Shown here in pieces: positions 4,070 to 18,769 of a stretch of DNA of 64,000 nucleotides (position 1 is its first letter; each line of letters opens with the position of its first letter). Position numbers and translations under genes: made by a program. The notes under the pieces were generated by a model. It made no database searches. It was not told where the DNA came from and saw only the letters and a program-made list of their open reading frames with translations. The stretch comes from an uncultured Actinomycetes bacterium (GTDB lineage: Bacteria; Actinomycetota; Thermoleophilia; Solirubrobacterales; 70-9), in the NCBI GenBank assembly GCA_963696955.1, contig CAVOMF010000002.1:354044-418043 (forward strand), read 5' to 3'.

Positions 4070-5806
4070 CTAATCGCTCTGGACTGCAAGCGTGCCCATG
4101 TAAGGCAAAGCCTCTAGCTGAGATAGGAAAGTCGGAAAGTCTTCGATCCGGGTTCGGGGATCCTCCTCTAGTTTGAAATCGCGAATCCATTTGCGCATCA
4201 CCGATCGAACCTCATCACTCTCAACGCTACTGTCGAGCTGGCCATCGATCTCCTCGATGAGCATCGAGACAGCTTCCTTACGTGGGGCTTCACGGTTGTC
4301 GGAGATGAAGCGACGCTTGGCGCGGTTGACCCTGCTCCGAATTCGCTCTTCGCTCGCTTCGCGATTGGCGTGTCGTTGCATCTTCGCAAGAAGACGAAGC
4401 AGAACGACAAAATTCTGCTTGACAGCAGCGCGAGCTGGTGAATCGGCCGGGGAACTCTCAATCGCCGCTAGGAGACTGCGCGCAAAACCGATCTTGTCAA
4501 GGTCGAACTCGTCCTCTTTGAGAAACGAACGAACCGCCGACTCGACTCCAGCATGACTATCAGAGCCATCGCTGAACACCTCGGCCGAATCGGGAGCAAA
4601 GTCGCTCATATTCTGTGAGATCCCTACTTCTGAGCAATAGAGCCGAGCGGCCTCTATTGCGAGCTCTAGCGGTACGAGATCCTCAATGCCGACAGGCCCG
4701 TTCGGATTCTCCGCAGTAAGTCCATTTAGTGCCTCATCGTTTAGCCGAACGACGTAGTCATCCTTGATCAGCTTCTTATTCCGTGGGCCACCTTTGCTTA
4801 GCGCCTTCCTTGCTCTGGCCCCTGGCTCGTCCCCATCCAGGAGGACGATTACCGGGGGGCGGTCGACGTCGCGCCCTCTGGCCAGGAAAGCCAGATAGGG
4901 AATATGAGACGCTCCGCCAGCCGGGACTAAAGTAATCGTATTCAAGTCGAGCCGCTCGGTATTGGCAACACCTTCACGGGTCAATAGGCTCGATAGCCCA
5001 GCGATGAGAATCTGGTCTGATGGCCCCTCGATCATCAGGTTGCAGGTGCCGATAAAGGCGGTCTCGCCGACAAAACCTCCTAGAGCCGACCTGAGTGGCT
5101 CGTAGTGATTACGTGAAGCGTTCTTAACCACGCGAGTCCCCTCGTCATGCTCACCCTTCTCCAACACTCTTATCCGATCAGCATGATTCTTGTCGATCAA
5201 GAACGGTGAGTGAGTGACGTAGACGACCTGTATCGGCCGAACAGCCTCAGCCTCTGGTTCCGCGAAACTAGAGAATATGCGGAGCAGGTCCTGCTGGCCC
5301 GATGAAGACAAATAAGCATCGGGCTCATCCATGAGAAGAATCTCTGGTCTACCGTCCTCAGGAGGCGTATGGGAAAGCGACTGGACGAAGTAGCTCAGAA
5401 AGTATTTGAGTCCTGCACTGCGCTCATCGAACGAGTAGCTTTTCCCAGTGCGATCATGAATTAGAAAGACGAGCTGGTCGAGATTCAGAGCAACTACGAG
5501 GCGAAACGCGCTGTCCTGCGACCACCAGTGTGGAAAATTGAGGCTGTTGGAAAGTTCTTCATTAACCTTGTCAACAATGCTCTTCGCGTAGCCGTTTCGC
5601 TCTTCACCCACCGCCTTTTGCAGCTCGACAAAAAGGCCTCTGTCGAGTCCGGCAATATTGATCAGCAGATCGCTCGCGAGTTCGTACTTCCTCACAAGGC
5701 TCTTATTCGGCTCCCGAGCTTCATTGAAGATCGCCATTACGTCGTCTGCTGAAGCACGCAAAGTGCGAGATTTCCGATTTGTACAAACAGATTTTGAACT
5801 TGGCAA
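4070..5806 (-). pseudogene. OLD-family ABC-ATPase + Toprim nuclease, 5'-truncated (no Walker A)
   Basis: ERSAGLKYFLSYF (signature-like), ILLMDEPDAYLS (Walker B), YVTHSPF (H-loop), then Toprim MIEGPSDQ and VLLDGDEPG. No P-loop exists: the frame closes at a stop at 5918-5920 and the upstream sequence is non-coding-like. GC is much lower than in the surroundings. Confidence 0.65.
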
Positions 5807-9354: not shown

Positions 9355-10107
9355 ATGGCTCTCGCGGCACAAACGCGGAAGATTCTTTGGGCGCGATCAG
9401 GTAACCAATGCGCCAAATGTCAGGCTGCGCTAGTCGCGCCTGACGAGGTGGCGAAAGGTAAGCCTGCAATCGTAGGTCAGGAGTGCCACATCGTCGCCAG
9501 GGCTCCAGATGGACCACGGGGGCGTGAGCAGGCGGATTGCGATTTGGATGACTACGCCAACCTGATCTTGCTTTGCGCCAATTGCCATGTGGTTGTGGAT
9601 GGCTGCCCGGATCTCTTTTCACGGGTTGAGCTATTGCGAATTAAGAAGGAGCATGAGAGCCGCTTGGCCGCCCGTGATGGGAACCCGTTTCAGTTCCCCA
9701 GGCTTCGGATTGAGGAGCCGGATTCGGCACCCGCGCTGATACGCATTGATCACGGCAAGACGCTACTTGACGTATTTCGTTCTGCCTGTGTCGGAAGCCG
9801 AAAGGTTCCGCCGCTGCTTTCCAGTGACCAGCGCTCGCTCGTTGTGGACTTCCTTGACTCATTTGACTGCTGGAACGAAGCCTATGAGGAGGTTGGTTGG
9901 GGTCGGCAGCTTGAAGCCGAGCACGACCTCGATGATCAATTGGAAGCCTTGCGTGATGTGGGCCTGTTCGTGTTTGCCGGGACGAAGAAATGCACGATGG
10001 TCGCGGAAGGGCGGGACCCAGTTCCATGGCCACATGCGATCTTGGTCGTCGTCCACGAAGTGGACGCCAGAGCCGACTCCAATGAGCAATTCAAGCAACC
10101 CGTCTGA
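9355..10107 (+). CDS. HNH endonuclease with an unknown C-terminal domain
   Basis: SGNQCAKCQ...GQECHIVARAPDGPRG...YANLILLCANCHVVVD is the Cys-rich HNH (beta-beta-alpha-metal) signature. Confidence 0.8.
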   Translation: MALAAQTRKILWARSGNQCAKCQAALVAPDEVAKGKPAIVGQECHIVARAPDGPRGREQADCDLDDYANLILLCANCHVVVDGCPDLFSRVELLRIKKEHESRLAARDGNPFQFPRLRIEEPDSAPALIRIDHGKTLLDVFRSACVGSRKVPPLLSSDQRSLVVDFLDSFDCWNEAYEEVGWGRQLEAEHDLDDQLEALRDVGLFVFAGTKKCTMVAEGRDPVPWPHAILVVVHEVDARADSNEQFKQPV

Positions 10108-10693: not shown

Positions 10694-11980
10694 CTAGCTC
10701 TTTGGCGATTGCCGCCCCATCATGCTCATGCCCCGCTCGAGCCGGCGGACGGTGGTCGCGCCTGGCGGCACCGGGACGGCGCGGAAGGTCGGGGCCGGCA
10801 GGTGCAGGCGGAAGGCGATCCTGCCCTGGCGGTCGAAGCCGGTGAGGAGCTTGTTGTCGCCCCAGCTGACGAGCCAGCCGCCACCGGGCAGTTCCCGCGC
10901 CGAGCCGCAGCAGTGGCTCCGCTTCACCTCCGGGTCGTTGAGCTGTCCCTTGTAGATGGCCTTGCCGGCGCCGAGGTCGAGCTTGTAGAAGACGACGCGC
11001 GGGCGGCGGGGGCGGTCCTTGCCGTTGTCGAAGATCGTCAGCCGGCCGTAGCGATCGAGGCGGGCGTCGTGCTGGCCCCCGAGCAGCTTCGTCGCCGGGT
11101 CGCCGACCACCCGCAGGGAGTTGCCGGTGTGGCTGCCGCCGAGCTTCCAGTTGATCTCCCCGCCGGCGCGGTCGATCCCGTAGACGGCATCGGTGTGGCG
11201 GGTGGAGATGATCACTTCGTCCCGCCCCCGCGGCTCGATCGAGTTGATGTGGACGGGGTCGTAGGCCTCGCGCTGGAGCCGGCGGCGCGGGTTGCTGAGC
11301 ACGCTGTGCCACCAGCGGCCCGTCTCCGAGAGGGCGATGTGGCCGCGCGAGTTCCAGCTCCAGAGAACCTTCCCGGCGGGGTCGACTTCCTGCGCTTCGG
11401 CGGAGACGATCGTCGCCCGCCTGGGGCCGCCGACGCGACGCAGGTCGGCCGTTTCCGGGACGTAGGTGTCGAGGAACACGTTGCCGTTCGCGAGCTCGCG
11501 GTACTCGTGACCGTCGACGATCGACCCCTCGGTCTTGACCAGGCGCAGCAGCTTGCCCGACTCCGAGCGCACCTCGTGGGCCATCCGCGGGTCGAGCCCG
11601 TAACCGTCGCCGAAGGAGCGCGCCCAGACGACGCTGCCGTCGCCGACGATCTGCCCCCACAGCGCTCGCGTATCGGGGTTGAACCACCAGCGAGGCCTGC
11701 CTTCGGTGTCGAAGACGATCACCCAGGGGCGCCCGTCCTCGCCCGAATAGGTGACGACGAAGAGGCCGAAGGGCACCGGGCGGATCGATTCGAACCGCGT
11801 CGGCGGGAAATCCGCCGGCGGTTTGGGGAGGTGGGACGCCGGCTGCGCTCTCGCGTCATCAGGCTCGCCACCGGCCTGTCCGCATCCGCTGAGAAGAAGC
11901 AGCGAGACGATCGCCAGCGGGAGCAGGGCGCCCACGGCACGGATCGACCTCGAACGATGGCGCAGCAGGATCTGCACCAA
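10694..11980 (-). CDS. arylsulfotransferase (ASST)-family lipoprotein
   Basis: 428 aa. Signal peptide plus lipobox LLLLSGC. Beta-propeller-like ASST sequence (HEYRELANGNVFLDTY, DPVHINSIE, GGQHDARLDRYGRLTIFDNG). Confidence 0.7.
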   Translation of the reverse strand: MVQILLRHRSRSIRAVGALLPLAIVSLLLLSGCGQAGGEPDDARAQPASHLPKPPADFPPTRFESIRPVPFGLFVVTYSGEDGRPWVIVFDTEGRPRWWFNPDTRALWGQIVGDGSVVWARSFGDGYGLDPRMAHEVRSESGKLLRLVKTEGSIVDGHEYRELANGNVFLDTYVPETADLRRVGGPRRATIVSAEAQEVDPAGKVLWSWNSRGHIALSETGRWWHSVLSNPRRRLQREAYDPVHINSIEPRGRDEVIISTRHTDAVYGIDRAGGEINWKLGGSHTGNSLRVVGDPATKLLGGQHDARLDRYGRLTIFDNGKDRPRRPRVVFYKLDLGAGKAIYKGQLNDPEVKRSHCCGSARELPGGGWLVSWGDNKLLTGFDRQGRIAFRLHLPAPTFRAVPVPPGATTVRRLERGMSMMGRQSPKS

Positions 11981-13726: not shown

Positions 13727-14585
13727 GTGGAGATCGGGATCGGCCTCGCCGCGGCCGTCGCGCTGATGACGAACCTCGCCTCGCTGCTCAAGCACCGTGG
13801 CTGCCAGCACGCGCATCCCGTCTCGATCAGCCAACCGCTCTCAAGCCTCCGCGGCCTCGCCGCCTCGCCCTGGTTCGCCGCCGGCTGGGGACTTGCAGCC
13901 CTCGCCTGGCTCGCCCACATCGCCGCCCTCTCGCTGGCCCCGATCTCGCTCGTGCAGGCGGTGCTCGCCGGCGGCGCGGTCACCCTCGCAGTGCTCTGGC
14001 AGCGCCTCTTCGGCGGCCGGGTCGAGCGCAGGCAGTGGCTGGCACTGGCGCTCGGCGGCGGCGGGCTCGCCCTTCTCGCGGCGACGCTTCCCCACTTCCA
14101 CGGCGCCCATTCGGGCTTCTCCGTACCGGCGATCGTCAGCTTCGAGGGCGGCCTGGTCCTGCTGGCGGCCGGGGTCGCGCTCTGCCACCGCGCCCCCCGC
14201 CTCGCCGCCCGCCGCGGGGTTCTGCTCGCGGTCCTCGCCGGCCTTCTCTTCGCCCTCGCCGGGATCGCGATCAAGGCCCTCACCGGCGGCGCCGGCGAGC
14301 TGGCCGCTGATCGCATCCCTGCTGGTGCTGACCCTCGCCTGCGGCGCCCTCGCCCAATACACGGCGGTCGCCGCTCTACAGAGCGGCGGCGCGATCGAGA
14401 CGATCGGCCTGATGGGAATCGTCGCCAATGCGACCCAGATCCTCGGCGGCATCCTCGTCTTCGGCGACCCCCTCTCCCCCAGCCCTCTCGGGATCACGCT
14501 CCAGATCACCGCCCTGGCGATGGTCTGCCTGTCCGCACTCCTGCTTCCGTCCTCGATCGCCGGCCGACGCCTGGAGCCGGCATAA
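13727..14585 (+). pseudogene. DMT/EamA-like integral membrane protein with one +1 frameshift near 14295
   Basis: The hydrophobic N-part ends ...FALAGIAIKALTGGAGE in the 13727 frame. It continues as WPLIASLLVLTLACGALAQYTAVAALQSGGAIETIGLMGIVANATQILGGILVFGDPLS in the 13797 frame. Confidence 0.6.
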
Positions 14586-14642
14586 GGGACCTGGACTCGG
14601 TAACGCTTCGTATCGCTGCGGATCCCTGCGTACGATGAGCAC

Positions 14643-15026
14643 ATGGGCGAACTGCCGAGGTTGCCGGCGGAGGCTAGGGAGATCGTGGCGCGCAATGGGA
14701 TCGACCGGGTACGGGCGACGCGAAAGCTTCGCGATGTACTGATTCGTGCCGCCAGGGGAGACGGTGAGGCGGCGTCCATCCGGACGGTCTCGGTCCTCGG
14801 CTCGTATGCCCGTGGGGCGGCTTCGGTCGGAGATATCGACCTCACGGTCGATGTCGACGATCCCAGGGACGAACGCACTGCTCAGCTGAACGACCTCTAC
14901 GCGCGGTTCAGAGGTGAGAATCCAGAAGCCCCCCTGCTACGCGAGTCTGCGCTGCTCCGGATCGTCGATGGTCAACGCAGTCGTTGTCCGCAGGTTCGGG
15001 CCCCACCCAGAGCCGGTCCCGCCTGA
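14643..15026 (+). CDS. Pol-beta superfamily nucleotidyltransferase (minimal NTase domain)
   Basis: VSVLGSYARGAASVGDIDLTVDVDD provides the GS loop and DxD, with a later acidic strand LLRIVDG. May be fused to the next ORF if a +1 shift near 14930-14975 is an artefact. Confidence 0.65.
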   Translation: MGELPRLPAEAREIVARNGIDRVRATRKLRDVLIRAARGDGEAASIRTVSVLGSYARGAASVGDIDLTVDVDDPRDERTAQLNDLYARFRGENPEAPLLRESALLRIVDGQRSRCPQVRAPPRAGPA

Positions 15027-15735
15027 GAAATGGCGCGATGACATCGGCCCCGGTTTTGAACTGGCTCGCCCACCCACGCTCGGTCATGTGGTTACGAACC
15101 AACCACTCGCCGGTCCTTCCTACCTCCTCTTCGTCCGTGGCGATACGGAGGAGAGAGCGTTGGAGCGACTGACGGCAATCAAGGAAGACCCGACGGCGTC
15201 GCGCTTCGAACGTACGACGAAGGTGCCGTTGCTGGATGAGCTCATCGATCTGATCGGAGTCGAAGTGCAGGACAAGCTTGCGAAGCTCGTCCTCGCCGGC
15301 GGCTTGAACCTCGAGGCCGTGGTGCTGCAGGGGGACGTCGAGCCTCCTGAGCCCGTGGTTCAGTTCGAGGCCGAGGGTGACCCGATTCCAGGCGGCAAGG
15401 CCCGCCGAGAGGTCGTGCTGTCAGCTGTGAATCACTCATTGGAAGCGGGGATCGCGCCTTCTGAAATTTCACTGCGCGGCTCACCCTTGATCAAGGGTGA
15501 GCGTGAGGGCGACGTCCTGCTCGACTGGGGATCGATGACTCTGTTCAGGGCCGGTGAACTGCTGCGCAACGAGTGGTACCGGGTGGTGTTCGTCATCCTT
15601 GGCTCACACCGCAAGGGACCCTGGATTGGACTCGAATGCACCGTGCGCAGCAAGGCCGCTTTGGAGGAAACCGAAGCAGCGGAAGCGCGCCGGATCTCCC
15701 AGCGTTTGTCCGATAGCTCCGACGGCTCGGCTTGA
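14968..15735 (+). CDS. hypothetical protein (about 255 aa), middle gene of the NTase/SLOG operon
   Basis: ATG 14968 (MVNAVVVRRFGPHPEP...) sits in the +1 frame relative to the NTase ORF and overlaps it by 59 nt. No motif recognised. Its stop lies 5 nt before the next ATG. Confidence 0.45.
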   Translation: MVNAVVVRRFGPHPEPVPPEKWRDDIGPGFELARPPTLGHVVTNQPLAGPSYLLFVRGDTEERALERLTAIKEDPTASRFERTTKVPLLDELIDLIGVEVQDKLAKLVLAGGLNLEAVVLQGDVEPPEPVVQFEAEGDPIPGGKARREVVLSAVNHSLEAGIAPSEISLRGSPLIKGEREGDVLLDWGSMTLFRAGELLRNEWYRVVFVILGSHRKGPWIGLECTVRSKAALEETEAAEARRISQRLSDSSDGSA

Positions 15736-15740
15736 GAAAC

Positions 15741-16901
15741 ATGGCGCGAAGACTGCACGTCGCTGGTAGCGCCAGTGCGGCCCTTCCCGATTTGGAGTCG
15801 CTGCGCTGGGCGCACCAACTGGTTCGGCTCGTGGTGCGATCCCATCTCGCTCCGGGAGGAACCATGCTGACCCAGGTCGGAGACGATCCCTCCCACACCC
15901 AGGACGCACAGTTGCGGATCCTCTTCGACTGGACCGTGATGGAGGTCTGTCGGGAGGCGATCGAAAACGGTGAGGCAGTCCCGCAGCAGGAAGGCCAACC
16001 ACTTGTGATCGGGATCTGCACTCCCTCCGGTCGGGAGCTGGTGTCGGAGCGAAACGAGGCGACCTTGACGGCGCTTCGGGACGCCGGCGCCCTGGGCGTA
16101 ACCGTGCTCCCGGATCGCTTCCGCTTCGGGGCACTGCTGCGACAGGTTCAAGCCGCACATGGCGATGTCCTCCTCACCCTCGGCGGCGGCGTCGGCGTCG
16201 AGCACCTGGTTCGCCTCTACATGGACAGGCGCAACCCGATCGTCCCCCTGGACCTGGAGATCGGATCGTCTGACGGCGACACCCCCTATGGCGGCACCGC
16301 GATCGCCGGCGAGGCACGTTCTCGCCCGGAGGACTTTCTGCAGCTGGTCGCGCCCGCGAGCGCAACCGCTCACCTCGATGGTCTGCGCACCAAACGCGGA
16401 GGCCTACTGCCGGCCGAGACGATCGCGGGTCGCGTGACCGCCCTGCTCGAAGAGCTGCGTCCCCGGCGAGCCTTCTATGTCCGTCTCCTCGACACGGCAT
16501 CTGAGTCCTTCGCCGACGTCGAGTGGTTCTTTCGCTCGGTGGTCGACCCGGTGGTCCAAGAACGCGGCTTTGAGCGCGTCGAGGTGGGAACCGACCCCCA
16601 GCGGCTGGGCTTCATCGACGCCGAGATCTTCACCGAGCTGCACTACGCCTCGGCAGCCGTGGTCGATATGACCGAGCAGCGCCCGAACTGCGCCCTCGAG
16701 CTGGGCTACGCCCTCGCCCGCGGCCACCTCGTCCTGCTGAGCGCCCGCGAAGGCGAGCGGCTTCCTTTCGACGTCGACAAGCTGCCCTGCCTGTTCTGGT
16801 CCCCTCACCTCGGAGCCGGAGCCCTGAAGCAGCGTCTCCGTGAGTACTGGGATAACCAGATCCAAAGGGCGCCGGTGGTTCCCCAGCTCCCGATCTCCTA
16901 G
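15741..16901 (+). CDS. SLOG-like domain fused to a TIR-like (CAP12/PycTIR or nucleoside 2-deoxyribosyltransferase-like) domain
   Basis: N-half has RLHVAGSAS and LTLGGGVGVEHL (LOG/SLOG GGxGxxxE). C-half has AFYVRLL...VVDMTEQRPNCALELGYALARGHLVLLSAREGERLPFDVDKL. The ORF track starts at TTG 15732; ATG 15741 is preferred. Confidence 0.55.
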   Translation: MARRLHVAGSASAALPDLESLRWAHQLVRLVVRSHLAPGGTMLTQVGDDPSHTQDAQLRILFDWTVMEVCREAIENGEAVPQQEGQPLVIGICTPSGRELVSERNEATLTALRDAGALGVTVLPDRFRFGALLRQVQAAHGDVLLTLGGGVGVEHLVRLYMDRRNPIVPLDLEIGSSDGDTPYGGTAIAGEARSRPEDFLQLVAPASATAHLDGLRTKRGGLLPAETIAGRVTALLEELRPRRAFYVRLLDTASESFADVEWFFRSVVDPVVQERGFERVEVGTDPQRLGFIDAEIFTELHYASAAVVDMTEQRPNCALELGYALARGHLVLLSAREGERLPFDVDKLPCLFWSPHLGAGALKQRLREYWDNQIQRAPVVPQLPIS

Positions 16902-18769
16902 GGCACGACGACGTTGAACCAGATGTTGAAGGTGTCGAGCAGCCCGATCAGCTCCGCCAGCGGGCCTGCGTCGGGCTCGGCCTCGCCGACAATCACGGCG
17001 TCGAGGTCCTTGCGCTCCAGCGTCACGGTCGCGTCGGCGTCGTCGGCCTGGCGACCCAGGGAGTGGTTGAGGGTGCCGCTGCGGAGCTCCAGCACCGCCT
17101 TCTCGCCGGTGTCGGTGACATCGAGGTTGAGAGTGATCTGCCGGCCCGCCGCTTCGGGGCCGTTGAGACGCATCGCCATGTAGTTGAAGAGCAGCTCCAG
17201 GCTCATCGCCCGCACCGTGTCCGGGGTGGCGGTGCCGGGGAAGGGGACGTCGGGGATGCCGTGGCGGAGGTCCTGGGCGCCGGTCAGGTAGTGGCCGCGC
17301 CAGCTGCCCGACTCCGCCTGGTAGCCCATCTGCTCCAGCGTGTCGGCCTGGAGCTCGCGCGCCGCCTTGTTCTGCGGGTCGGCGAAGACGACGTGGTTGA
17401 CGACCTCGGCCACCCAGCGGTACTCGCCCGCCTCGAATTCCCTGCGCGCTTTCTCTAGGACCTGGTCCGCCCCGCCCATCATCTCCACGTAGCGCTTCGA
17501 GGCCTCCTCCGGCGGCAGCTTGTGGAGGTTCGCGGGGTTGCCGTCGAACCAGCCCAGGTACTTGACGTAGGTCGCCTTGACGTTGTGGTTGACGGTCCCG
17601 TAATAGCCGCGCAGGCTCCACTCGCGCGCCAGCTCCGGCGGGAACTCGATCATCTCGCCGATCTCGACCGCGGTGTAGCCGTGGTTGGCGAGCCGCAGGG
17701 TCTGGTCGTGGATGAAGCGGTAGGCGTCGCGGCCGTTGCGCAGCATCGCCAGCACGTCATCGGTCCCCCAGACCGGCCAGTGGTGCATCGCGTAGAGCAC
17801 CTCCGCCCGGTGGCCCCAGCGGTCGATCGTCTCGTTCAGGTACTGCGACCAAGCCTGCGGGTCGCGGGTCGGCGCCCCGCGCAGGGTGTAGGTGTTGTGG
17901 AGGGTGTGGCAGCAGTTCTCGGCCGCGGTCAGCGCCCCCAGCTCCTCGACGAACCAGTGCATCTCCGCCGGCGCCTCGGTGTCCGGCGCCAGCAGGAACT
18001 CGAAGGTGAGGCCGTCGATCTCGAGCTTCTGGTCGGTCTCGGTGATCTCCTCGGTCGGCGGGATCAGGGTCGGCGCCCCGGCCGAGACGCCGATCCCGAG
18101 CCCGGCGCCGACGTGGCCCTTCGGCCCCGGCTGCAGCAGCACGCCCAGGTGGTACATCGCCCGCCGGCTCATCGCCGTCCCCGCCATCACGTTCTCGGAG
18201 ACCGCCGCCTCGAGGAACCCGACCGGCGCGATCACCCGCACCTTCCCCGCCTTCACGTCCTCCTCGGAGATCACGCCCTTGACGCCGCCGTAGTGGTCGA
18301 CGTGGCTGTGGGAGTGGATCATCGCCACCACCTCCCTGCGCGGGCGGTGTTCGAAGTAGAGGTCGAGCGCGGCCCGCGCGGTCTCCGGCGAGACCAGCGG
18401 GTCCATCAGGATCAGGCCGGTCTCGCCCTCGATGATCGTCAGGTTGGAGAGGTCCTGGCCGCGCACCTGATAGAGGCGGTCGACGACTTTGAAGAGGCCG
18501 CCTTTCTTGATCAGCTGGGCGTTCCGCCAGAGGCTGGGGTTGACGGTCGGCGGCGCCGGCGCACCCTCCTCGACGAAGTCCAGCGCGGCGCCGTTGAAGA
18601 CGGGCGTCCCGTCCTCCTTGGTGGCGATGCCGCCGTTGTTGAGCGGCGCGATGAAACCGCGGGCGGCGTCCTCGAAGTCCCTCGTGTAGTCGAAGGGCAG
18701 CTCACCGAGGACGGCTTCGTTGATCCGCTTCGTGAACTCGGTCGCGTCCTTGCGCTCACACACTTTCAT
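16898..18769 (-). CDS. MBL-fold alkyl/aryl-sulfatase (SdsA1/BDS1/YjcS family)
   Basis: 623 aa. IHSHSHVDHYGG metallo-beta-lactamase motif, a dimerisation region, and an SCP2-like C-terminus. Confidence 0.85.
   Translation of the reverse strand: MKVCERKDATEFTKRINEAVLGELPFDYTRDFEDAARGFIAPLNNGGIATKEDGTPVFNGAALDFVEEGAPAPPTVNPSLWRNAQLIKKGGLFKVVDRLYQVRGQDLSNLTIIEGETGLILMDPLVSPETARAALDLYFEHRPRREVVAMIHSHSHVDHYGGVKGVISEEDVKAGKVRVIAPVGFLEAAVSENVMAGTAMSRRAMYHLGVLLQPGPKGHVGAGLGIGVSAGAPTLIPPTEEITETDQKLEIDGLTFEFLLAPDTEAPAEMHWFVEELGALTAAENCCHTLHNTYTLRGAPTRDPQAWSQYLNETIDRWGHRAEVLYAMHHWPVWGTDDVLAMLRNGRDAYRFIHDQTLRLANHGYTAVEIGEMIEFPPELAREWSLRGYYGTVNHNVKATYVKYLGWFDGNPANLHKLPPEEASKRYVEMMGGADQVLEKARREFEAGEYRWVAEVVNHVVFADPQNKAARELQADTLEQMGYQAESGSWRGHYLTGAQDLRHGIPDVPFPGTATPDTVRAMSLELLFNYMAMRLNGPEAAGRQITLNLDVTDTGEKAVLELRSGTLNHSLGRQADDADATVTLERKDLDAVIVGEAEPDAGPLAELIGLLDTFNIWFNVVVP

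Follow-up and report, generated by a model that had tools for sequence, protein, structure and literature searches.

The subject of this report is a two-gene unit at positions 14643 to 16901 of a stretch of 64,000 nucleotides (nt) of DNA from an uncultured Actinomycetes bacterium; the whole stretch is called the window below. The first gene of the unit encodes a nucleotidyltransferase (NTase) of the Pol-beta superfamily, and the second encodes a protein in which a SLOG sensor domain of the TPALS type is fused to a domain resembling nucleoside 2-deoxyribosyltransferases (NDTs) and TIR proteins. We favor the interpretation, to which we give a probability of about 0.55, that the pair is a CBASS-like anti-phage signaling module with a non-canonical signal synthase. 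On infection, the NTase, through a core like those of MNT and Pol-X enzymes (GS, DxD, and D167), would make a nucleotide-based second messenger. The TPALS SLOG domain of the effector would bind this messenger and turn on the C-terminal NDT/TIR-like N-glycosidase, which would then deplete NAD+ or another essential nucleotide, such that the infected cell would stop growing. That the NTase supplies the activating nucleotide is the most economical model because the effector family elsewhere uses a cyclase-made ligand, the residues of the ligand pocket are invariant, and the only conserved partner of the effector is a catalytically intact NTase. An earlier note on this DNA, made without database searches, had proposed the same general logic of a nucleotide signal maker and a signal-activated effector, and by analogy with known systems this still seems the best reading of the locus. 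The elements concerned are as follows, with lengths given in amino acids (aa) and open reading frames abbreviated as ORFs.

14643..15735, plus strand: single NTase gene, 363 aa, Pol-beta superfamily, of a rare uncharacterized family; split here into ORF1 and ORF2 by a 1-nt insertion
14799..14840, plus strand: NTase catalytic core, G53-S54 loop and D64-I-D66 (family conservation, weak Pfam matches, PDB profile match)
14946, plus strand: inserted T causing a +1 frameshift (GAG-T-CTG here, GAG-CTG in relatives, ...LLRE LRCSGSS...), located with blastn and MAFFT against L001, L002, L003, and L006, the base itself being checked directly
15142..15144, plus strand: D167 in VRGD, putative third metal-binding carboxylate (corrected frame, family conservation)
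15741..16901, plus strand: 386-aa effector, with an N-terminal TPALS/Cap17-like SLOG sensor and a C-terminal NDT/TIR-like domain, a predicted N-glycosidase (PDLC00733, 128 homologues, AF2 model)
15744..16388, plus strand: TPALS/Cap17-like SLOG domain of the effector (PF18178, invariant residues, fold matches)
16458..16898, plus strand: C-terminal NDT/TIR-like domain, approximately residues 240-386, with E320 at 16698-16700 (Foldseek, weak Pfam matches, invariant Glu)
14628..14642, no strand: left boundary of the conserved module; the alignment with L001 begins at 14628, 15 nt 5' of the NTase start

The locus had been read in the earlier note as three genes, and the gene boundaries given there agree with the sequence on direct checking. 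ORF1 occupies 14643-15026 on the plus strand. ORF2 lies in the +1 frame relative to ORF1, with an ATG at 14968 (an alternative GTG at 14914 is possible) and a stop at 15735. ORF3, on the same strand, begins at an ATG at 15741, after a 5-nt spacer (GAAAC) that follows the ORF2 stop, and ends at 16901, where the CTAG at 16898-16901 contains both its TAG and the stop codon of the convergent gene for an alkyl sulfatase. The number of genes is nevertheless two, as ORF1 and ORF2 are halves of one 363-aa gene, split by the inserted T at 14946. This was the fallback offered in the same note, which allowed that a +1 shift might have broken up a single enzyme of about 365 aa. With the conceptual ORF1-ORF2 fusion as the query, a homologue search returned 12 proteins (352-377 aa, 50-85% identity, E values of 1e-92 to 1e-195), most of which span the entire query and one of which is a 254-aa fragment. 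Because the homologues span both ORFs, we rejected ORF2 as a separate protein. The statement that ORF2 matches nothing holds for profile libraries, but ORF2 in fact makes up the C-terminal two-thirds of the NTase, which are conserved.

The alignment locates the break precisely. Intact homologues read ...NPDxxLLRELRCSGSSMV..., which the window matches in the ORF1 frame through LLRE and in the ORF2 frame from LRCSGSS onward. Relative to L001, the closest relative (91.7% nucleotide identity over 4.1 kb), the sole extra base in the NTase gene is the T at 14946, and with this T removed the gene encodes 363 aa with 87% identity to P0001. In the corrected frame, the ratio of nonsynonymous to synonymous substitution rates (dN/dS) of the NTase gene versus L001 comes to 0.16 on the 5' side of the shift and 0.19 on the 3' side. 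Values this similar on the two sides indicate that the whole length was one constrained reading frame.

The NTase and effector genes form a conserved unit of two. An NTase gene followed on the same strand, 1-10 nt away, by a TPALS effector gene is present in the window, in L001, L002, and L011, in L003-L005, in L006, and in L033 and L034, with unrelated flanks; four further pairs of NTase and effector matches lie on contigs of identical size. The module has two genes and not the three of the earlier note, and five or more lineages that differ in their flanks keep the pair, as would be the case for a conserved operon of synthase and effector in CBASS. In the window, the 5-nt spacing probably couples translation of the effector to that of the NTase. 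When L001 is compared with the window by blastn, positions 14628-18762 align at 91.7% and nothing aligns leftward of them; the left flank of L001 carries a restriction-modification (RM) methyltransferase gene, an Eco57I-like gene, and McrBC. Both genes of the pair are under purifying selection (dN/dS, 0.18-0.28 in the NTase and 0.11-0.12 in the effector). Synonymous divergence between the window and L001 across 14643-18769 is 0.42 for the NTase, 0.28 for the effector, and 0.15 for the adjacent alkyl sulfatase, and the module may evolve faster than its surroundings or may have been exchanged between strains.

The base composition of the unit is uneven. GC content is 0.635 in the NTase gene (ORF1 plus ORF2) and 0.669 in ORF3, against 0.733 in the left flank, 0.689 in the sulfatase gene, and 0.672 in the whole window. 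The earlier note had described the entire block as less GC-rich than both flanks; the dip is real for the NTase gene, which is also low in GC at third codon positions (GC3), but ORF3 lies near the window mean, and the clear deficit is confined mainly to the NTase gene. Together with the RM and McrBC genes directly upstream in L001 and an OLD-like ATPase-TOPRIM gene 9 kb upstream in the window, this low GC and GC3 make up a context that fits a role in defense.

The effector provides the strongest connection to CBASS. ORF3 matches the PADLOC CBASS model "Effector TIR" PDLC00733 over its full length (residues 2-384, 6.6e-69), and its N-terminal domain is Pfam PF18178 (Cap17-like_N, TPALS SLOG; 3.1e-30, 105.6 bits versus a cutoff of 26.6). 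In Cap17, a CBASS effector, PF18178 is described as the domain predicted to bind cyclic oligonucleotides (bioRxiv 10.1101/2023.01.24.525353). A partial match of the same domain to the PADLOC model PDLC00759 "PN-superfamily" was also seen. We found 128 effector homologues. In an alignment of 42 homologues, the motifs RLHVAGSAS and GGGVGVEH and the Glu in NCALELGYA (E320) are invariant, including G9, S10, G149, G152, and E154. The SLOG glycine loop and GGxGxxxE motif recognized in the earlier note are therefore borne out, by the PF18178 match as well as by their invariance. Public gene calls of identical or near-identical effectors (P0014 and P0373; 345 aa) begin 41 codons late and so drop the RLHVAGSAS loop (window 15741-15863); we place the start at the ATG at 15741 because the invariant N-terminal GS loop needs it.

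Judged from its relatives, ORF3 belongs to a bona fide CBASS effector class that is already known, not new, because these relatives sit in type III and type IV CBASS operons. Among effector relatives of 35-46% identity, L008 is in a type III CBASS operon, with a cyclase (1.9e-94), HORMA, TRIP13, an exonuclease, and a match to the same effector model (9.5e-91), and L010 is in a type IV operon, with QueC, TGT, a cyclase (5.3e-84), and OGG. Another relative, 56% identical, has a weak SMODS match and queuosine-type genes in its vicinity. Like CBASS effectors, ORF3 fuses a sensing domain to a putatively toxic one and comes from a family present in CBASS operons. The earlier assertion that the system fits no named kind was thus overstated, as the effector is catalogued (PDLC00733, PF18178) and its relatives occur in CBASS of those two types.

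The C-terminal domain is best described from its predicted fold. An AlphaFold (AF2) model of the effector built on the 42 homologues has a pLDDT of 92.3, and its Foldseek matches include nucleoside 2'-deoxyribosyltransferases, DNPH1/RCL, BcmB, LOG-like proteins, DprA, and ShosA, all with a probability of ∼1.0. For NDTs and DNPH1/RCL, the probability is 1.00, with E values of 5e-4 to 5e-3 and TM scores (target) up to 0.74; as the Foldseek output carries no query coordinates, the placement of these matches on the C-terminal domain rests on the Pfam result for Nuc_deoxyrib_tr (PF05014). That family gave weak matches, all below threshold, in 20 of the 42 homologues and, over the region containing E320, in 7 of 15 C-terminal halves searched alone. 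No canonical TIR structure is among the top 50 Foldseek matches of the effector, and sequence comparison of the effector, or of its C-terminal half alone, with the PDB found nothing. These results agree with the TIR-like or NDT-like domain with a conserved Glu that the earlier note had assigned to this half of the protein. On the model, the catalytic domain is nearer in structure to the NDT/DNPH1 N-glycosidases than to classical TIRs, which makes NAD+ just one candidate substrate. With PF18178 above its gathering score, the GS loop, and GGxGxxxE at one end, and a TIR/NDT-like fold with a putative catalytic Glu at the other, the protein has the features of the TPALS SLOG-TIR/NDT family.

Its architecture differs in instructive ways from two better known sensor-effector proteins. 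Cap17 is a CBASS ATP nucleosidase, TPALS-PNP in architecture; the C-terminal domain here is NDT/TIR-like, not PNP_UDP_1. ThsA of Thoeris (SLOG-SIR2) similarly couples a SLOG-type sensor to a nucleotide-degrading effector domain, but the SLOG domain here is TPALS rather than STALD, there is no separate TIR signal producer, and the signal maker would be a Pol-beta NTase. Consistent with these differences, no PADLOC Thoeris model matched, and STALD was matched, weakly, by 2 of the 42 effector homologues.

The SLOG and NDT folds also occur in LOG, in DNPH1, and in nucleoside deoxyribosyltransferases, and the pair could conceivably serve housekeeping nucleotide metabolism (cytokinin activation of the LOG type, or nucleoside salvage) instead of defense. 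We consider this extremely improbable. The family-specific matches are to the CBASS effector model and PF18178 and not to LOG (Lysine_decarbox), nor to NDT above threshold. Moreover, the distribution is patchy, in that a scan of 185,579 species-representative genomes for the NTase found one locus, in a metagenome-assembled genome (MAG) already among the homologues. Finally, the flanks vary, RM and McrBC genes among them, and relatives of the effector lie within CBASS operons.

The NTase carries the catalytic motifs of its superfamily. The GS (14799-14804) and DID (14832-14840) motifs, which the earlier note had rightly taken as the GS loop and DxD of a Pol-beta core, are invariant or nearly so in 31 family members: G53, S54, D64, and G166 are invariant, R165 is nearly so, D66 is present in at least 90%, and position 167 carries D, with E in a few. 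The segment LLRIVDG, earlier proposed as an acidic strand, turned out to be an out-of-frame translation, and intact homologues read LLRELRCSGSSMV. The third metal-binding carboxylate is instead probably D167 in VRGD, for which we infer a catalytic role. The near or full invariance of the catalytic GS and DxD, together with the conservation of D/E167, makes it probable that members of the family are catalytically active.

Profile and structural comparisons of the NTase converge on this core. The Pfam families DNA_pol_B_palm, NTP_transf_2, and Polbeta all match at the catalytic motif just below their thresholds (22.1 versus a cutoff of 25; 16.5 versus 21). In a PDB profile search, the sole solved-structure match was the Pol lambda/Pol beta palm (∼56 residues, E values of 0.005-0.1). 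The NTase shares the pattern helix-GSYxRG-x4-GDxD with these family X polymerases, but the match covers the catalytic motif only, and the NTase is without the fingers, thumb, and 8-kDa domains. In Foldseek searches of the PDB with the AlphaFold model (pLDDT 79.8, pTM 0.74), only minimal NTases matched, over the first ∼100 residues (2rff, E = 0.024, probability 0.98; MntA, 7ae9/6m6u; AadA). The GS loop, the DxD, the third carboxylate, and the Pol-beta fold together place the protein in the Pol-beta superfamily. Conservation is also good over the C-terminal ∼250 residues (RFERTT, GGL, PGGKAR, HRKGPW), a region of predicted mixed alpha/beta structure for which profile and Foldseek comparisons detected no relative of known structure. 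Foldseek comparison of the NTase with the BFVD viral structures gave nothing below E = 0.08.

This is a rare, actinobacterial family. An exhaustive search with a profile, covering 1.84 billion representative proteins, gave 176 matches at E ≤ 1e-3, comprising a few long forms (353-398 aa) and many forms of ∼290 aa that are without a ∼45-residue insert. The ∼290-aa relatives come from Streptomyces, Amycolatopsis, Streptosporangium, Nonomuraea, and soil metagenomes. A tblastn search of plasmids found no match to the NTase, and IMG/VR viral contigs gave none to the long form and two marginal ones to the short form. The ∼290-aa relatives (including those of L035:3196-6861, L037, and L038) adjoin Septu-like AAA_21 and HNH genes, PIN_12 and AAA ATPase genes, PemK, integrases, and RelA_SpoT/NA37, and lie near genes typical of actinomycete integrative conjugative elements (DnaB, a SPDY-domain protein). 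By gene content, these surroundings are mobile or defense-like.

Given the effector, the simplest expectation would be an ordinary type I CBASS in which the NTase is a true CD-NTase, beyond the reach of profiles, that makes a cyclic di- or trinucleotide. The locus resembles type I CBASS in being a two-gene operon with a nucleotidyltransferase followed by a sensor-effector fusion, the latter matching a CBASS effector family over its full length, and a size of 363 aa would also suit. CD-NTases are likewise Pol-beta-fold enzymes with GS and DxD, and CdnE, CdnC, cGAS, and OAS do appear far down the Foldseek list. But the NTase departs from CBASS in not being a detectable CD-NTase/SMODS enzyme. When 13 members of its family were compared with the PADLOC Cyclase models, none matched even at E ≤ 10, whereas the genuine cyclases of L008 and L010, as positive controls, matched 22 and 24 models. 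There was no match to Pfam SMODS (PF18144), and hhalign of the family profile with a genuine type III cyclase gave a probability of 0.2%. In Foldseek, the best matches are the minimal NTases, and CdnE and CdnC follow at E values of 0.3-0.65 with TM scores of ∼0.16 (0.3 and 0.16 for CdnE). The predicted mixed alpha/beta C-terminal region is also unlike a helical bundle. With PADLOC, Pfam, hhalign, and Foldseek against the PDB all negative, we rejected membership in the CD-NTases: the NTase is not a recognizable CD-NTase by sequence, profile, or predicted fold, and the "CD-NTase-sized" length remarked on in the earlier note does not make it one. An ordinary type I CBASS is accordingly quite improbable. 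The PADLOC rules for CBASS require a cyclase, and PADLOC-style rules would probably not call this locus. As for Pycsar, none of the three ORFs gave a cyclase-type match in PADLOC or Pfam.

The main rival to a signaling module is prompted by the MNT-like core of the NTase. The pair could be a toxin and its antidote or guard, in which the NTase holds the TPALS-TIR toxin off, either by nucleotidylylation, as MntA does with HepT, or through a constant inhibitory nucleotide, and in which loss of the NTase during infection frees the toxin. The structural matches to the core are indeed headed by minimal NTases, MNT antitoxins among them (2rff at E = 0.024; 7ae9; 6m6u), with which it has the GSxxRG...DxD pattern in common, and the tight coupling of the genes, NTase first, resembles that of many toxin-antitoxin operons. 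Yet the NTase differs from the minimal enzymes of type VII MntA-HepT (MntA, 7ae9/6m6u) and of Sulfolobus (2rff) in being three times longer, in its conserved ∼250-aa C-terminal region, and in having as its partner a TPALS-NDT protein and not HEPN. The NCBIfam model for MntA (NF047752) scores 12.8 bits against a cutoff of 60, which places the pair outside type VII MntA-HepT. Moreover, bona fide CBASS operons combine a signal synthase with an effector of this same family, whose ligand-pocket residues are invariant. Finally, frameshifted NTases stand beside intact, constrained effectors in two lineages (see below), and loss of an antidote would be expected to be lethal there. Two independent NTase frameshift alleles beside intact effectors fit an activator more readily than they fit an antidote, although this argument is weaker if the shift in the window is a sequencing error. 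On balance, we regard an antidote or guard as unlikely, if less so than a cryptic CD-NTase.

Several observations weigh against a signaling module as well. The NTase fails every test for a CD-NTase, and so the case for signal synthesis is one of gene order and analogy. Its core is closest in structure to minimal NTases, including the MntA antitoxin, which works through protein AMPylation and not through signaling. Close homologues number only ∼12, all from soil metagenomes or MAGs. In 21 metagenome and three genome loci, the ∼290-aa relatives are without a TPALS partner, such that the NTase family is not tied to this effector, and a search of the same loci for some other conserved partner found none. 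Finally, the NTase gene is frameshifted both in the window and in L033/L034.

The last of these points raises the possibility that the window copy is a decaying remnant, with a genuine shift at 14946 and a module that no longer works in this genome, whatever its ancestral role. The inserted T does not lie within a homopolymer (GAG-T-CTG). In addition, L033:2150-3312 and L034:112-1201, from two different samples, carry a 72%-identical NTase gene with another +1 insertion, by which a run of C4 has become C5 at ∼25 nt upstream of the site in the window; this insertion produces the same split into 127 aa and 254 aa, with an intact effector downstream. This independent insertion shows that NTase-null alleles do occur in nature. 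Oppositely, a GC3 frame plot of the window reveals about six frame changes within 12.15-14.95 kb (2.8 kb), all in the same (+1) direction, whereas the remainder is mostly made up of long single-frame runs. Four of the changes are in a DEAD-box helicase gene, whose motif I (SPTGSGKT), DEAD and SAT motifs, and motif VI (HRVGRTGRAG) are spread over three ORFs; one is in the upstream membrane protein gene (13727-14638, near 14190); and one is in the NTase gene. The membrane protein had been called a frameshifted permease in the earlier note, and the frame change is there, but no Pfam match speaks for its identity as a permease. The clustering suggests a local consensus error in the assembly, at a variable locus. 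Moreover, the dN/dS of 0.19 past the shift implies that any inactivation is recent. We therefore regard it as doubtful, although far from negligible, that the frameshift in the window is genuine, and a decaying remnant seems doubtful to the same degree. The window copy is either inactive or mis-sequenced and may thus be inactive, which lowers its practical value because the NTase is frameshifted. We also considered programmed frameshifting, or a split enzyme re-initiating at the ATG at 14968, as two alleles shift within 25 nt of one another; these have a low probability, as we found no slippery-site logic for the allele in the window.

If the two genes do act as a signaling module, what is new is the enzyme in the position of the synthase, the architecture and the effector being already known. 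In the literature available on TPALS, PF18178, SLOG-TIR, and the NTase, we found no description of this NTase-effector pairing. Immune nucleotides are made by a different class of enzyme in each of CBASS, Pycsar, Thoeris, and type III CRISPR. The NTase could analogously be the founding member of an unrecognized class of immune signal synthases that is unrelated to CD-NTases apart from the Pol-beta core, has displaced the cyclase beside a CBASS-type TPALS effector, and produces an uncharacterized messenger. The partner of another family member is relevant to this idea. In L039:4383-6315, a 50%-identical long-form NTase gene (P0011) is followed 10 nt downstream by another coding gene (GC3 ∼0.9), which encodes at least 272 aa before the contig ends and has no Pfam, PADLOC, or TPALS match. 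This single, incomplete partner gene may be an alternative effector, reflecting effector swapping in a signaling family. We advance the proposal of a new synthase class, with the L039 pairing as part of it, tentatively, judging the odds to be slightly against it.

If the NTase does make the signal, several consequences would follow. Another independent signal-making enzyme would be seen to have been coupled to an existing sensor-effector family, which would bring to bacterial innate immunity a new class of enzyme and perhaps a new messenger. More generally, sensor-effector modules could be re-wired to unrelated synthases. Loci would also be exposed that current detection tools, which require a CD-NTase, probably miss. 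With the L039 partner included, the family would represent a new group of nucleotide-signaling defense systems in Actinobacteria.

Other genes in the vicinity deserve brief mention. An arylsulfotransferase gene (ASST; 10694-11980, minus strand) and the alkyl sulfatase gene (16898-18769, minus strand) bracket the region; they apparently belong to ordinary sulfur-ester metabolism unrelated to the module. The gene ∼9 kb upstream of the module (4070-5806, minus strand) encodes an AAA_21/AAA_15 ATPase with an OLD-like TOPRIM domain, the architecture of an OLD/Gabija-type defense nuclease; the ATPase match begins in the middle of the profile, so that the N-terminus may be truncated or shifted. Between 9000 and 10600, the window has a patch of low GC (0.56-0.61 versus a mean of 0.67) containing an ORF (9355-10107) with a marginal HNH_2 match, and this patch is probably another foreign insert.

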